Of a DNA stretch of 4,502 bases, positions 1 to 4,502 are shown piece after piece. The notes beneath the pieces are model-generated. The model saw only the letters and a program-made list of their open reading frames with translations, was not told the origin of the DNA and made no database searches. This DNA is from a virus. Its lineage: Duplodnaviria > Heunggongvirae > Uroviricota > Caudoviricetes. The stretch lies in the IMG/VR virus record IMGVR_UViG_2541047931_000010, one strand, 5' to 3'. Each line of letters opens with the position of its first letter. The stretch's first letter is position 1. Both the position numbers and the translations under genes were made by a program.

Positions 1-558
1 ATGAATACAGCTATAACTTTTTCTAACGAGTCACCAAAAGTCTTTTTCAAAGATGGTCGCCTGGTTACCACCTCTCAAGCTGTTGCCGACTACTTCGATA
101 AACAACATAAACACGTTTTAGCTAAGATTGACACACTCGACTGCTCTCCCGAATTTACATCAGCCAACTTTTCGGCCGATGTTCAGACTGTCGAAATTGG
201 CAACGGCGCAGAACGTGAATCACGATGCTACCTGATCACAAAAGACGGCTTCATGTTCCTCGTAATGGGATTTACTGGCAAAAAAGCAGCCAGACTAAAA
301 GAAGCTTACATTGAAAAATTTAACGCAATGGAAGAAGAACTCCACAAACGTCCTCCTGCAGCACAAAACTCCCCCGACCCAAATAATGGATGCGCATTAC
401 TGATCCACTTCGATAAACACGGTCAGGTCGAGTTCACAGAAAAAGTCCCCGCCGATGCGATGGTATGCACGCTGGAACGGTTTAAATTTTATCTGGAGCA
501 ACATGGGTGGATCGTTGCCCGTAAAGAACAATTGGTGGAAAGGTTGATGCGGTTTTAA
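1..558 (+). CDS. Rha-family phage regulatory protein (antirepressor-like)
   Basis: 185-aa ORF starting at the ATG at position 1 and ending at TAA 556-558. The N-terminal segment GRLVTTSQAVADYFDKQHKHVLAKID fits the Rha-domain signature as I remember it (v.TsSr.iAe.fgKrH.nVLr.I). A GC hairpin plus T-run follows directly. The ORF may continue upstream of the window. Confidence 0.75.
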   Translation: MNTAITFSNESPKVFFKDGRLVTTSQAVADYFDKQHKHVLAKIDTLDCSPEFTSANFSADVQTVEIGNGAERESRCYLITKDGFMFLVMGFTGKKAARLKEAYIEKFNAMEEELHKRPPAAQNSPDPNNGCALLIHFDKHGQVEFTEKVPADAMVCTLERFKFYLEQHGWIVARKEQLVERLMRF

Positions 559-598: not shown

Positions 599-684
599 CG
601 AGCGTGATTGCCGCTAATCGCCATCGCTCTGATTGAGCGTAAATCATTCAGGTTATTCAGTTCTTCCTTCTGCTCTCGCTGACG

Positions 685-855
685 TCAATAAATCCCATCA
701 TTGCGATCAACCTCATCCTTAACCATTGATGCGAGCAGTTCTTCCAGTTTCTGCGCTGACAGCTTTACCTGGTGATCTTCAGCATCTTCCCGGGCTATTG
801 TGGTTCGCGCAGTGGCTGATTTTGCTGACATCACCTCAGGGGGCAGACGGACCAT
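685..855 (-). CDS. Small hypothetical protein (about 56 aa), doubtful
   Basis: Taken from the 685..966 minus-strand ORF in the track, using the internal ATG at 853-855 (MVRLPPEVMSAKSAT...NDGIY). GGAGG lies 10 nt upstream. The longer form starts at a TTG inside the hairpin and tfa stop region and is not credible. No recognisable motif, so this may be a spurious ORF. Confidence 0.3.
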   Translation of the reverse strand: MVRLPPEVMSAKSATARTTIAREDAEDHQVKLSAQKLEELLASMVKDEVDRNDGIY

Positions 856-919
856 TGAACCATGGCCTCCGGAACAAATAAGGGCAAAAATAACAACCAC
901 TATCGAAAGCTCACAAACT

Positions 920-1089
920 AACCGCAGCACGTTCCTGCATACGACGTGTCTGCGGCATAATCCCAATGATTACTCCCTGACAGGATTTGCAGGCCACTCA
1001 ATATCAGGTGCAGTTGATGTATCAACACGATTCAACAATACCCGATATTTATTCCATGCCTCCAGCAACGATCTTTCTTCCTCCGTTGC
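920..1089. repeat. Direct repeat copy 1 (hairpin plus 3' end of tfa)
   Basis: About 170 bp matching 1970..2138 in the same orientation, roughly 85-90% identical by eye, with one 1-nt indel in the hairpin arm. On the minus strand it encodes the conserved Tfa C-terminus. Confidence 0.85.
922..955 (-). terminator. Hairpin directly downstream of tfa fragment copy 1 (terminator-like)
   Basis: Arms ccgcagcacg (922-931) and cgtgtctgcgg (945-955) pair with a 1-nt bulge. It lies 14 nt beyond the tfa stop on the minus strand and is followed on that strand by a U-rich stretch (uuaguuugug). No clean U-tract, so terminator function is uncertain. Confidence 0.35.
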
Positions 1090-1203
1090 GATTTCCAGAT
1101 CTACAGCATCCTGCAGTGGCGCAATATACTCACTGAATTCCTGGATGTAGAACTGTGTGGTGACGGTCTTCCAGCCATTCGGCTCCTGCTGTATCGAAGC
1201 ATA
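970..1203 (-). pseudogene. Tail-fibre assembly protein (Tfa) 3' fragment, C-terminal ~77 codons, no start codon
   Basis: Minus-strand translation gives [77 protein letters not shown]. This matches the conserved lambda/Mu-type Tfa C-terminus (...[43 protein letters not shown]...) as I recall it. The frame is closed upstream by TAG (1204-1206) and contains no ATG or GTG. Confidence 0.7.
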
Positions 1204-1224
1204 CTAGGCTATTTCAATATCGCT

Positions 1225-1239
1225 ATGCTGCGGCAGCAT
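1225..1239. other. 15-bp perfect palindrome atgctgcggcagcat
   Basis: A 7-1-7 perfect inverted repeat read directly from the sequence. It shares the 10-mer tgctgcggca with the hairpin arm at 1997-2006. It sits at the truncation point of tfa copy 1, just upstream of the candidate methyltransferase promoter. Confidence 0.5.
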
Positions 1240-1247
1240 TTAACCCC

Positions 1248-1295
1248 TTGTAATTCATCGCCATAATTGATTTAATTCACAAATAAAACTATAAC
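1248..1295 (+). promoter_or_regulatory. Candidate sigma70 promoter(s) for the methyltransferase gene
   Basis: AT-rich leader with two possible arrangements: TTGTAA (1248-1253), 17-bp spacer, TTTAAT (1271-1276); or TTGATT (1267-1272), 17-bp spacer, TATAAC (1290-1295). Judged by eye against consensus only. Confidence 0.3.
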
Positions 1296-1964
1296 ATGGT
1301 GAAATCAATGAAAAAAAACACAGATGATGGGGCTAAAATTTACACACCACTTACCCTAAAGCTTTATGACTGGTGGGTTTTGGGAGTATCAAATCGGCTT
1401 GCATGGGGATGTCCTACAAAGGAACACCTTCTTCCACACTTTCTGGAACATTTAGGTAACAACCATCTGGATATTGGTGTTGGAACTGGGTTTTACCTTA
1501 CTCACGTACCTGAGAGTAGTCTGATATCTTTAATGGATTTGAACGAAGCTAGCCTGAACGCGGCATCTACAAGGGCTGGGGAATCAAAAATTAAACATAA
1601 AATTAGCCATGATGTTTTTGAACCTTATCCCGCGGCGTTACATGGTCAATTTGATTCCATTTCCATGTTTTACCTTCTTCACTGCCTGCCTGGAAATATA
1701 TCTACAAAAAGCTGTGTAATACGCAATGCGGCGCAGGCCTTAACTGACGATGGAACTCTATACGGAGCCACAATTCTTGGCGATGGAGTTGTGCACAATA
1801 GCTTCGGTCAAAAACTGATGCGCATTTACAATCAGAAAGGCATCTTTTCAAACACAAAAGATTCCGAAGAAGGCTTAACACATATACTCTCAGAGCATTT
1901 CGAGAATGTTAAAACCAAGGTTCAAGGTACTGTAGTAATGTTTTCCGCTTCAGGGAAAAAATAG
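1296..1964 (+). CDS. ybcY: Class I SAM-dependent methyltransferase (Rossmann fold, not a DNA methyltransferase), probable prophage cargo gene
   Basis: 222-aa ORF. Motif I LDIGVGTG, acidic post-I residue (LMDLNE), motif II FDSISMFYLLHCL and motif III LTDDGTLYG. No DPPY/NPPY or PCQ/ENV motifs. GC is clearly lower than the flanks (about 36% in the first 66 nt). The start may instead be the ATG at 1308, which has GGTGA 5 nt upstream. The gene symbol is tentative: it rests only on remembered synteny with DLP12 tfaD-ybcY-tfaX, not on sequence comparison. Confidence 0.72.
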   Translation: MVKSMKKNTDDGAKIYTPLTLKLYDWWVLGVSNRLAWGCPTKEHLLPHFLEHLGNNHLDIGVGTGFYLTHVPESSLISLMDLNEASLNAASTRAGESKIKHKISHDVFEPYPAALHGQFDSISMFYLLHCLPGNISTKSCVIRNAAQALTDDGTLYGATILGDGVVHNSFGQKLMRIYNQKGIFSNTKDSEEGLTHILSEHFENVKTKVQGTVVMFSASGKK

Positions 1965-1969
1965 CATCC

Positions 1970-2138
1970 AACCGCAGCACGTTCTTGCTTAAGACGTGCT
2001 GCGGCATAATCCCAATGATTACTCCCTGACAGGGTTCGTAGGCCACTCAATATCAGGTGCAGTTGATGTATCAACACGGTTCAGCAACACCCGATACTTC
2101 TTCCAGGCTTCCAGCAACGGAGTTTCTTCCTCCGTTGC
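1970..2138. repeat. Direct repeat copy 2 (hairpin plus 3' end of tfa)
   Basis: Matches 920..1089 in the same orientation. Similarity fades by about 2147, where the membrane-protein gene ends. Confidence 0.85.
1972..2004 (-). terminator. Hairpin directly downstream of tfa fragment copy 2 (terminator-like)
   Basis: Perfect 11-bp stem ccgcagcacgt (1972-1982) / acgtgctgcgg (1994-2004) with an 11-nt loop. It lies 14 nt beyond the tfa stop on the minus strand, and a U6 run follows about 10 nt later on that strand. On the plus strand it starts 8 nt after the methyltransferase stop but has no U-tract. Confidence 0.4.
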
Positions 2139-2147
2139 ATATACAGC
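2019..2147 (-). pseudogene. Tail-fibre assembly protein (Tfa) 3' fragment, about 42 codons, no start codon
   Basis: Minus-strand translation [42 protein letters not shown] is the conserved Tfa C-terminus. The frame is closed upstream by TGA at 2148-2150 and has no start codon. Confidence 0.68.
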
Positions 2148-2157
2148 TCACCTTTTT

Positions 2158-2451
2158 TCACCCACGATTAACCAACAGCCAGACCAGCAGACACGCCACC
2201 ACCGGCACAGCAAAATCCATCAGGCTTGCCACATCCCACGCGCGCGGATCAAAACCGCCCCACCACGGCATATTCATTCGCTTGCCATGCACGAACATTT
2301 CAATCCAGCGATATTCTGCCTGGGTGTGTTCACGCGCAATGAAGAACGTACAACCGGCTATCGCCCCGTAAGCCCAGTTTCCGGTAAAAAGACCAGCCAG
2401 TACCTGCACCGCCACGGCACAAAGCGCATGAAGTATCGACGTGATATCCAT
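2158..2451 (-). CDS. Small hypothetical membrane protein (97 aa, 2-3 predicted transmembrane segments)
   Basis: ATG at 2449-2451 with AAGGA about 6 nt upstream and only 9 nt after the stop of the preceding gene. Hydrophobic stretches at residues 5-38 and 74-94. Ends at TGA 2158-2160. No family recognised. Confidence 0.6.
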   Translation of the reverse strand: MDITSILHALCAVAVQVLAGLFTGNWAYGAIAGCTFFIAREHTQAEYRWIEMFVHGKRMNMPWWGGFDPRAWDVASLMDFAVPVVACLLVWLLVNRG

Positions 2452-2460
2452 CTGCTATCC

Positions 2461-2739
2461 TTAAAACCACTCCCTGAGCGGGCGCTCTGGTGTAACCACC
2501 CACTCACGGAACACGGAATCATCAAATCCATCGTCAAGAAGACGGATATTAACAAAGTACCCTTCGTTTCGCGTGTATTCTGGTTCTCCGTCATCAGAAA
2601 CATCTGTCTCCCTGAACGTAAAACCAATCTCATCAACCAGAACGGCATTCTGCAGCTCTTCGTCCTCTTCCCAGTTAAGTTTCCTGAGAAATGCCCTGAA
2701 ATCTGCTTTATCACTGAAACGCAACGTGAAATCTCTCAC
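2461..2739 (-). CDS. Small acidic hypothetical protein (92 aa), translationally coupled to the tail-fibre gene
   Basis: GTG start at 2737-2739 overlaps the tail-fibre TGA stop in a GTGA arrangement. A strong GGAGG sits 7 nt upstream. There are 24 Asp+Glu against 12 Arg+Lys and no internal Met. No family recognised. Confidence 0.62.
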   Translation of the reverse strand: MRDFTLRFSDKADFRAFLRKLNWEEDEELQNAVLVDEIGFTFRETDVSDDGEPEYTRNEGYFVNIRLLDDGFDDSVFREWVVTPERPLREWF

Positions 2740-4502
2740 TCCACAACCTCCCCAAGCTGCGCATCTGTTAGCTCTTTATGCCAGAGACGAAAATTCCTCA
2801 CATGCCCAAATAAATGGCGTAATCCTGCTGTAGTTTGTCCACCAATGCGAATGATTGCTGTACTCCGGATATATTCCCATGTGGTTTTTGTTTCGCTGGA
2901 TATACGCCCGTTACTTACTGCACATGTAGACTGATCTGACTTTACACGCATCCCCATAACCATTTTTTTCAACGATGCGTTTTCGTTAACACGCCTATTT
3001 GATCCACCAATATCGCAATAAGGAAATCCGTCTGGCCCATCTGCCGAAGATCCGAAGCCAAGAATAATAGCCGCTCCGGTTTGATGACCGCCGGTATCAA
3101 AAACACGTGGCGCTGCATTTGGCGTTTTATACCAGTTCTTATGTACCTCACAAAGAACCGTAAAAGGAAGATTATAAAGATTATTCTTAATCGGAACTGT
3201 AACCATATCGCTTGCGCGCGTCGCCGCCGTCGTTCCTGATATAATAAAAGATGATACACACGAACCATCCTCAACCTGAGGGGTGGCCAGATAAATATAG
3301 TCACCAGATTCAACGACACCACCTTTTTTTGGTGCGTATTGTATTGCAGAGGTTATGTAAGTTTCTTTACTTGCTTGAATCGTTGCCTCTACAAAAATCC
3401 AGCCCGTAGCTTCATCTTTGCTAACTCGTGCGGTGAGCCTGTCGGCAGCTACACCGGTGATTTCAACCAATAAAGACCGCGTATTAACAATGGCATATCC
3501 AAGATTAGATGAAGCGCTGCCATCGAAGGCTTCAAACCTGATCCTTAACAGGAGTTCCAAATCCGTTTTAAATCTGCACGATGTCGTCACACACTTATTA
3601 TCGCCTGATACATCGACAGCCCCCGAGGTTGAAACTACTGCCATATTAAGGGTTGTACTTTGCCCAATTAATGATTCATTACAAACAAACTTTCCATAAG
3701 TAAAACCAAAACTATCAGTTCCAACCTCAGCGACATTCATATTTGCAGATTTACCCCAAGAAGCTGGAGTTGCTGAATTCAACATGTAGTTGGTTCGCTG
3801 ACCTTCAATCAATAAACCTTCTTTTTCAAATCGTGGCTCATTAATTTCCGCCGTTTTCAGTTCGCCAGATTTGTTGATATATGTTGCCGTTGATGCGCGA
3901 CTGAAATTAACCTGTTTATCACTGGCAACCTGAACCACATTATCACCAATCATCACTTTTTTATAACCCGGAGAATAGCCCGTAATCATATCCAGCGAAT
4001 CATTAAAGGGTATCCACACATCCGGCAGCGGCTGTAAAACATATCTGTACGGCTCTGCTGTCTGGTTTGCGTATTCTCTGGCAGCATCTTCACTTGCTTT
4101 TGCTGCCGTCTGGCTTGCTGCCGATGCTTTCGCCGAGTTCGCCGCCGCTGTTTCGCTCACCTTTGCGTTGGCTTCACTGTCTTTGGCATTCGTCTCACTG
4201 GTTTTCGCTGCCGTCTGGCTGGATTTTGCGTTTTTTTCGCTGGCCTTTGTGGCTGTCTCGCTATTTTTCGCGCTGGTTTCTGATTTTTTGGCTGCTGTCG
4301 CGGAGTTTGCCGATGCAGTCTGCGAGGCCGCTGCCGCCTGTGCGCTGTTAGCTGCATTCGTTTCTGAGGTTTTCGCCGCATTCTTCGATGAGGCTGCTGC
4401 CGTTTCGGATTTCTTTGCCGCCGCTGCACTCTGTGATGACGCTCCGGCATGACGTGCCACTTCATTCACCATCAGCTCAAAACGGCGCAGTGCCTCCGGA
4501 CG
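2736..4502 (-). CDS. Phage side tail fibre protein (Stf-like), N-terminus lies beyond the window
   Basis: The frame is open to the window edge; 2736..4502 translates to 588 aa. The first residues RPEALRRFELMVNEVARHA resemble the lambdoid Stf anchor region (PEVLRRLELMVEEVAR, from memory). Ala/Ser/Thr-rich SETNA/KNA-type fibre repeats follow. The C-terminal part ends with ...RHLFGHVRNFRLWHKELTDAQL, which resembles the terminal motif of LamG/ConA-like lectin domains. Confidence 0.9.
   Translation of the reverse strand, partial: RPEALRRFELMVNEVARHAGASSQSAAAAKKSETAAASSKNAAKTSETNAANSAQAAAASQTASANSATAAKKSETSAKNSETATKASEKNAKSSQTAAKTSETNAKDSEANAKVSETAAANSAKASAASQTAAKASEDAAREYANQTAEPYRYVLQPLPDVWIPFNDSLDMITGYSPGYKKVMIGDNVVQVASDKQVNFSRASTATYINKSGELKTAEINEPRFEKEGLLIEGQRTNYMLNSATPASWGKSANMNVAEVGTDSFGFTYGKFVCNESLIGQSTTLNMAVVSTSGAVDVSGDNKCVTTSCRFKTDLELLLRIRFEAFDGSASSNLGYAIVNTRSLLVEITGVAADRLTARVSKDEATGWIFVEATIQASKETYITSAIQYAPKKGGVVESGDYIYLATPQVEDGSCVSSFIISGTTAATRASDMVTVPIKNNLYNLPFTVLCEVHKNWYKTPNAAPRVFDTGGHQTGAAIILGFGSSADGPDGFPYCDIGGSNRRVNENASLKKMVMGMRVKSDQSTCAVSNGRISSETKTTWEYIRSTAIIRIGGQTTAGLRHLFGHVRNFRLWHKELTDAQLGEVVE
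4098..4439 (-). repeat. Imperfect tandem repeats encoding the tail-fibre repeat region
   Basis: Repeated nucleotide units such as ttttgctgccgtctggcttgctgcc and ttttcgctgccgtctggctgg encode repeated A-K-x-S-E-T-N-A-type peptides. Every frame on both strands is open here, which explains the spurious ORFs in the track. Confidence 0.6.

Follow-up and report, generated by a model that had tools for sequence, protein, structure and literature searches.

The window analysed here is a stretch of 4,502 nucleotides (nt) from a tailed virus (IMG/VR record IMGVR_UViG_2541047931_000010), and its minus strand is the distal end of a lambdoid late operon. A methyltransferase gene of the ybcY type lies in it between two direct repeats of ~170 base pairs (bp), each of which consists of a hairpin and the 3' end of a tail fibre assembly gene (tfa). 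We consider it highly probable (roughly 85%) that the window is a mosaic with two copies of the late-operon end, each copy being a portable homology patch for exchange and deletion, because the tfa end is common to very many prophages. The bracketed arrangement itself is a known and annotated layout; it is a recombination scar and no new kind of element.

Direct repeats around the methyltransferase gene

The two repeats, copy A (920-1089) and copy B (1970-2138), are in direct orientation and ~91% identical over 170 bases, with one 1-nt indel. This bears out the preliminary description of this DNA, in which two hairpin units with a tfa 3' end were said to bracket the methyltransferase, and it removes the doubt raised there that the units might not be significantly similar. 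A repeat finder returned two blocks, 950-1089 against 1999-2138 (140 nt, 91%) and 920-948 against 1970-1998 (29 nt, 90%); the indel between them is an extra T at 949 in copy A. The homology ends abruptly at 1089/2138 and at 920/1970. The features of this region are the following.

920-1089, minus strand: direct repeat copy A, hairpin and last 39 codons and stop of a tfaX-type tfa stub
922-955: hairpin A, stem of 11-12 bp with one bulged T, arms 922-932 and 944-955
970-1239, minus strand: stub A, tfaX-type, an 89-codon open reading frame (ORF; MLPQHSDIEIAW...) in relatives, here with TGG changed to TAG at 1204-1206
1240-1295, plus strand: spacer between the divergent tfaX stub and methyltransferase, with promoter-like sites from a scan
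1296-1964, plus strand: ybcY-type class I S-adenosylmethionine-dependent methyltransferase (Pfam), intact, 222 amino acids as called
1970-2138, minus strand: direct repeat copy B, hairpin and last 39 codons and stop of a lambda-type tfa
1972-2004: hairpin B, perfect 11-bp outer stem, arms 1972-1982 and 1994-2004
2019-2147, minus strand: tfa stub B of 42 codons, with an in-frame stop before it and a non-homologous join to a phage-21-type orf97

What is repeated is the conserved terminal part of the lambdoid late operon: the last ~40 codons of tfa and the hairpin downstream of them. Stub A matches the Pfam Caudo_TAP profile at positions 75-130 of 131 (E = 3.7e-25) and is a fragment of its C-terminal part; stub B, a 42-codon fragment, likewise falls short of a full-length Caudo_TAP (PF02413). 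In the complete Escherichia coli set (n=5426), the tfa end has about 13,000-16,000 matching places in about 4,900-5,000 genomes, depending on the query. A 30-nt tfa-end motif has 130 distinct occurrences in a sample of IMG/VR contigs, most of which carry a hairpin of the same family at a fixed 41-42 nt from the motif and usually also a conserved 20-nt flank past the hairpin (cactatcgaaagttcacca...). The outer stem is almost invariant across 24 hairpin variants, the lambda hairpin stem has a compensatory C-G to A-U change, and among methyltransferase-linked copies the copy A allele is almost invariant.

Compared with shuffled sequences, hairpin A folds at -18.8 kcal/mol on the plus strand and -25.5 kcal/mol on the minus strand (z = -3.6 and -2.8), and hairpin B at -23.9 and -28.5 kcal/mol (z = -5.7 and -4.6), respectively. 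Hairpin B starts 7 nt past the methyltransferase stop codon and ends 14 nt from the tfa stop codon. On the minus strand hairpin A is followed by GUUAGUUUGU, and a simple terminator scan flags it on this strand (939-923); hairpin B does not pass the scan. In alleles of the type found at locus L058, the same hairpin is followed by TTTTTCTTTTT on the plus strand. Hairpin B is kept in 80 of the 80 methyltransferase loci sampled below, 12 of which keep it though the homology stops at 2004 or 2010 and no stub-B-like sequence lies beyond. From the minus-strand scan of hairpin A, the TTTTTCTTTTT after the other alleles, the 7-nt spacing and the retention in 80 loci, we infer that the transcripts of tfa and of the methyltransferase, which converge here, may be terminated or stabilised at their 3' ends by the hairpin. 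No usable report of a terminator mapped between tfa and ea47 of lambda was found in a literature search.

Two Rfam models also match in this region. IS009 (RF02111) scores 113.4 bits at 1013-1216 and 68.3 bits at 2062-2160, both on the minus strand and against a gathering threshold of 117, and a weak CssrB match at 1973-2035 (minus strand) is below its gathering score. We rejected both as RNA genes on account of the sub-threshold scores and the overlap with coding remnants; evidently the tfaX and tfa 3' sequence is itself what the IS009 model describes.

Breakpoints and exchange partners

We compared the window with 80 methyltransferase-bearing viral contigs and recorded where the homology ends. 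The core 1188-2004 is present in all 80 loci and is 96-100% identical where aligned. On the left side the breakpoints are at 607, 898, 992/993, 1015 and 1188, with 43 loci that just reach the contig end; on the right side they are at 2004/2010 (12 loci), 2116 (9), 2138/2139 (46), 2150 (4) and further out (9). Their positions cluster within the two repeats or at the repeat edges. Some breaks at 992 are within ~20 nt of a contig end (e.g. L018), and the break of E. coli K-12 at 993 is a genuine divergence. When diagnostic sites were typed in 85 distinct units, the copy-A, copy-B and single copies were all patchworks of the same alleles, as expected from repeated homologous exchange or gene conversion within the unit.

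What lies upstream of copy B differs from locus to locus, ranging from a full 194-amino-acid lambda-type Tfa to stubs of 83, 60, 42 and 27 codons, and these varied stubs are several independent non-homologous joins. The junction of stub B to orf97 (2147/2148) in the window is itself non-homologous, and the same junction is found in phage 21, PhiR49_2 and ev243. Therefore, not all exchanges were homologous crossovers in tfa. The serial module exchange at the tfa 3' end put forward in the preliminary description is largely supported: the breakpoint clustering, the varied partners and the other cargo agree with it, and the join between stub B and orf97 calls for a correction. Recombination at this end has been observed for lambda. 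The C-terminal third of lambda tfa (200 bp) closely matches four K-12 loci including both DLP12 tfa homologues, and Red-mediated crosses are reported to yield recombinants at these loci (Poteete et al. 2004, PMC545071); stf/tfa is also where lambda has been shown to give hybrids with Rac and with Qin (De Paepe et al. 2014, PMC3945230).

Related prophages had been expected to carry other cargo at the junction, and they do, with sitABCD, an ipaH-like effector and ompT found in the same slot. Phage 21 has the orf97-stub junction with the stub cut at window position 2082, followed by sitDCBA (sitABCD) instead of the methyltransferase. In PhiR49_2, which lacks the methyltransferase, the conserved flank and a DinI-like gene come immediately after one unit. 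The L058-type loci have an ipaH-like LRR-NEL effector between the fibre module and the methyltransferase hairpin. The effector of L058 itself (4985-6628, plus strand), a type III effector with LRR_TTSS and NEL E3 ligase domains (E = 6e-77), has as neighbours a phage_tail_N/DUF4376 fibre module and the cassette, and an rve-family transposase lies on the other side, which makes this a stacked cargo region.

Four E. coli loci beside smpB (L207-L210) belong to a P2-like myovirus prophage with baseplate J/W/I genes and a P2-type fibre. They carry a 194-amino-acid lambda-type tfa, then the cassette of methyltransferase and 89-codon tfaX, and then a DinI gene. This shows that the cassette crosses phage morphotypes.

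The whole layout of the window, including the DUF4376 and orf97 flanks, is present in 389 of the complete E. coli genomes and also in the free temperate phages ev243 and 2G7b. The possibility that the duplication was confined to one sequence and reflected an assembly artefact is not borne out, since the layout is found in complete genomes, in K-12 and in free phages; an artefact is excluded.

A single-copy variant and loss of the cargo

As a query for deletion of the cargo, we built a synthetic junction of 491 nt from the left flank, one unit and the right flank. It was matched in one piece by 4 records from two sheep E. coli strains, ECL27977 and ECL27829, in a prophage at the yciE/ompW site, which is also the site of the two-copy locus L001. 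The single unit has the flank and hairpin of copy A including the extra T, the copy B alleles from ~985 on, and the orf97 flank of copy B, so that the switch from A to B falls inside the 35-nt identical stretch 950-985. In pairwise BLAST the single unit aligns to both A and B of L001. Such a chimeric unit is the expected product of homologous recombination between direct repeats, and its position between the same flanks supports the earlier suggestion that the repeats could mediate deletion of the intervening gene.

The cargo has also been lost in another way. In Ayreon (L085, ~3700-3860) the segment corresponding to window ~1270-1925 is missing, and the last ~45 nt of the methyltransferase, the promoter region and the start of tfaX are kept. 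We had considered Ayreon as a methyltransferase-free ancestor of stub A and rejected this because both methyltransferase ends are retained, which makes it an internal deletion. It is a second route of cargo loss, in which the repeats were not used.

Proposed explanation and alternatives

The repeat, the gene identities, the clustering of breakpoints and the chimeric single-copy variant are observations; the order of events that we propose would be the following. A phage-21-type stf-orf92-orf97 module would have been joined non-homologously to a 42-codon lambda-type tfa remnant with its hairpin, giving copy B. The methyltransferase converges on hairpin B in a moron-like manner, with its own promoter-like sites and an end 7 nt from the hairpin, and is followed by tfaX, the 89-codon tfa remnant with the second hairpin (copy A), and by the DUF4376 remnant. 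From this state a crossover in copy B would link the cassette to a new tail fibre module, one in copy A would link it to a new downstream region, and one between A and B would delete the cargo.

Several observations weigh against parts of this explanation. The polarity of the single unit is formally ambiguous, because integration of a circular cassette is the exact reverse of deletion and gives the same A/B chimerism. The compared strains are 97.4% identical in flanking core genes, and the event is not demonstrably recent. Covariation in the hairpin is modest, with 2 of 10 stem pairs, both of them inner pairs, changed on both sides with pairing kept among the 24 variants. A canonical U-tract is absent from the plus strand after both hairpins of the window, which makes the terminator role a putative one. 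Finally, the 89-codon ORF of stub A, with its ATG start, is intact in most relatives, and this could hint at a function and not a scar.

The ambiguous polarity leads to an origin of the Campbell type, in which the single unit would be ancestral and a circle carrying the methyltransferase and one unit would have integrated by a single homologous crossover, thereby creating the repeats. The symmetric chimerism agrees with this, as does the presence of the cassette in many unrelated contexts, with the methyltransferase at up to 4 places per genome. With these flanks, however, the two-copy layout is the commoner one (389 genomes versus 2 strains), and the single-copy prophage is further decayed, having a frameshifted orf97 and a truncated stf; both favour deletion over integration. 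Moreover, the tfa sequences upstream of copy B are anywhere from 27 to 194 codons long, a variation that speaks for separate illegitimate joins and against a single integration mechanism, and no circular form is known. We therefore regard such an origin as unlikely. A hairpin is present at each unit end, and for 11 of the 80 loci the homology stops exactly where hairpin B does on its outer side (2004), with one more locus stopping at 2010. This might instead suggest a site-specific system, resembling integron attC sites or invertases, that crosses over at the hairpins and mobilises the methyltransferase. This is hardly credible for the window: it has no recombinase, and no ORF or Pfam match for an invertase was found in it; the cassette neighbours vary; the repeats are direct, 170 bp long and take in much coding sequence; the A/B switch of the chimeric unit (950-985) lies outside the hairpin; the breakpoints 992, 1015, 2116 and 2150 are away from it; and lambda has the same hairpin simply after tfa. 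Site-specific and inversion models were rejected on the direct repeats, the lack of a recombinase and the crossover outside the hairpin.

The intact ORF of stub A raises a further alternative, that stub A works as a mini-chaperone gene and makes up, together with the methyltransferase, a divergent module of two genes, and that its likeness to copy B reflects protein-level constraint on the Tfa C-terminal domain. Besides the intact ORFs, which include a variant of 83% protein identity, promoter-like sites in both directions are on record for the K-12 spacer (PMC3946193), and the candidate RNA family IS009 maps to stub A with a score close to its gathering threshold. On the other hand, the ORF has been interrupted at different codons. 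In the window there is a TAG at codon 12 (1204-1206) where nearly all relatives have TGG (Trp), leaving 77 codons after it (1203-970), and the tfaX of K-12 is the same ORF cut to 61 amino acids by another nonsense mutation, at codon 62, so that the ORF was inactivated twice independently. In many loci a truncation from the 3' side also ends stub A at 992 or 1015; stub A is without the N-terminal half of Tfa, and the repeat takes in the non-coding hairpin too. Between lambdoid and P2-like cassettes, in which the methyltransferase is 99% identical, the ratio of nonsynonymous to synonymous substitution rates (dN/dS) over the cassette-specific first 38 codons is ~0.68, from 8 substitutions only, and this is consistent with relaxed constraint on these N-terminal codons. 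A full-length parent of stub A was not found by tblastn against phages or in a search of 5.8 billion proteins; these returned only ORFs starting with MLPQH or fusion artefacts. A functional stub A thus seems quite improbable to us. We regard stub A as a young scar whose intactness comes mainly from its recency, and we note that tfaX always travels with the methyltransferase.

The methyltransferase gene

The methyltransferase matches the generic class I domains Methyltransf_12, 23, 25 and 11 in Pfam. Its similarity to UbiG and to juvenile hormone acid methyltransferase, which are small-molecule O-methyltransferases, is marginal (E ~1e-3). It belongs to PHROG 2132, a family of unknown function, to which it aligns from residue 5. 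A scan found promoter-like sites at 1240-1267 (TTAACC-16-CATAAT) and 1267-1295 (TTGATT-17-TATAAC). The ybcY/tfaX spacer of K-12 has been reported as a site of the RpoD holoenzyme in SELEX (systematic evolution of ligands by exponential enrichment), with TTGATT-17-TATAAC (Shimada et al., PMC3946193), and the listed site corresponds to 1267-1295 of the window. The called ATG at 1296 follows immediately on the -10-like TATAAC (1290-1295), and the match to PHROG 2132 does not begin until residue 5. Translation may therefore start instead at the ATG at 1308 (MKKNTDD...), which would leave a very short leader. The gene is a putative moron, with promoter-like hexamers upstream and a hairpin 7 nt after its stop, there without a U-tract on the plus strand.

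The gene is present in 3836 of the 5426 complete E. coli genomes (71%), with a nucleotide identity of at least 95% everywhere and of at least 99% in 3266 records. Tentatively, the pair of tfa ends could make the methyltransferase a portable cassette that needs no recombinase and is carried along by the homology patch which tailed prophages of enterobacteria share most widely. It would move between lambdoid and P2-like prophages and be kept by selection, and its prevalence and identity despite scrambled flanks would then imply an important function in lysogens, in small-molecule or other non-DNA methylation. We consider this proposal possible and somewhat doubtful.

The 10-mer at 1226-1235

A third partial copy of the hairpin arm had been suggested at 1226-1235. 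The 10-mer TGCTGCGGCA does occur there, as it does at 1997-2006, and the arm of copy A is without it owing to the extra T. It is nevertheless not a copy of the repeat: the similarity around 1226-1235 extends by no base on either side, the local fold is no better than that of shuffles (z = +0.6), and the 10-mer is simply codons 1-5 (MLPQH) of the stub A ORF. About 0.2 chance matches are expected, estimated from ~28 possible hairpin 10-mers and 9 kb of two-strand sequence. In Ayreon the first codons of stub A differ (ATGATGCCACGGCAT). On these grounds we rejected the 10-mer as a degenerate third copy.

Neighbouring genes

The remaining features of the window are listed below.

1-558, plus strand: Rha-family gene, facing the terminator-like hairpin at 568-590
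568-590: terminator-like hairpin adjoining the Rha-family gene
605-875, minus strand: remnant of a DUF4376 tail fibre accessory gene, with PHROG 7703 and 1141 matches and a RefSeq pseudogene call on the homologous stretch
898-919: conserved flank just beyond hairpin A (cactatcgaaag...), which follows tfa hairpins in many phages
2158-2451, minus strand: orf97, small membrane protein, last gene of the phage-21-type module stf-orf92-orf97, abutting stub B
2739-2461, minus strand: orf92 (PHROG 1361)
4472-2736, minus strand: side tail fibre gene (stf), N-terminus cut by the window edge

The DUF4376 remnant is 72% identical to the intact DUF4376 gene of L058, and the RefSeq pseudogene on the homologous stretch has an internal stop. 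It is the third of three stacked 3' remnants of tail fibre accessory genes that lie downstream of the fibre operon in the window, and this stacking fits serial replacement of host-range modules. A 93-codon ORF at 685-966 (minus strand) spans hairpin A into the DUF4376 remnant and is most likely a spurious junction product.

On the other side, the phage-21-type side tail fibre is followed by orf92 and orf97 (2158-2739, minus strand) in place of a tfa of the Caudo_TAP type. The orf97 product belongs to PHROG 1443 and has 2 transmembrane domains according to the annotation of phage 21; orf92 and orf97 may be a chaperone or accessory pair for the phage-21-type fibre. The N-terminal shaft of stf (4075-4384, minus strand) has degenerate periodic repeats of 21 and 42 nt, which encode runs of the type A-K-x-S-E-T-x-A (AAKTSETNAKDSEANAKVSETAA...), a seven-residue repeat.

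Significance

The window is a clean and well-populated natural case of conserved gene ends ("linkers") that drive prophage mosaicism. One 170-bp patch would serve for host-range swaps upstream, for cargo swaps downstream and for deletion of the cargo between its copies. This explains the paired partial "tail fiber assembly protein" annotations around the methyltransferase in hundreds of genomes, where the repeats are real and not mis-assemblies. Beyond the existing annotation, our analysis adds the catalogue of breakpoints at 80 loci, the natural chimeric single-copy variant and the cassette in a P2-like prophage, none of which would surprise phage genomicists. New work is invited only by the near-invariant and highly prevalent ybcY-type methyltransferase.

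Comparison with known systems

The closest relative is DLP12 of K-12, with which a comparison had been suggested in the preliminary description. The order there is tfaD, ybcY (a pseudogene, on the opposite strand) and tfaX, the same layout as in the window, and the identity over 993-2138 is 97%. Both have the tfa 3' end with its hairpin, the methyltransferase converging on it, and, across a spacer of ~56 bp, the divergent tfaX ORF that begins MLPQHSDIEIAW, all in the same orientation. DLP12 differs in having a full-length tfaD upstream, the ybcY pseudogene and the other nonsense mutation in tfaX, whereas in the window the methyltransferase is intact and copy B is a 42-codon stub fused to the phage-21-type fibre module. 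Copy A of DLP12 loses the homology at 993 and there is no second hairpin, while the window has both hairpins. The C-terminal Tfa sequence is shared with lambda tfa (orf-194), and the homologous hairpin of lambda, between tfa and ea47, begins 15 nt past the stop and is followed, like that of copy A, by TTAGTT. Lambda differs in that it has the unit once, at ~87% DNA identity, and the methyltransferase is absent.

A second comparison is with morons (the concept of Hendrix and Juhala) and with exchangeable cargo loci that follow lambdoid tail fibre genes, such as the effector loci in prophages of enterohaemorrhagic E. coli (EHEC). As in these, the cargo of the window lies between the tail fibre genes and the prophage end and would be an autonomous gene, having promoter-like sites and a terminal hairpin. 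It differs in being bracketed by 170-bp direct repeats of phage sequence, which are outside the moron definition. The inversion switches (Gin and the G segment of Mu, Cin of P1, Pin of e14) likewise have duplicated ends of tail fibre and tfa genes and give rise to host-range modules. However, they consist of short inverted crossover sites with an adjacent invertase, in contrast to the direct 170-bp repeats of the window, which has no invertase.

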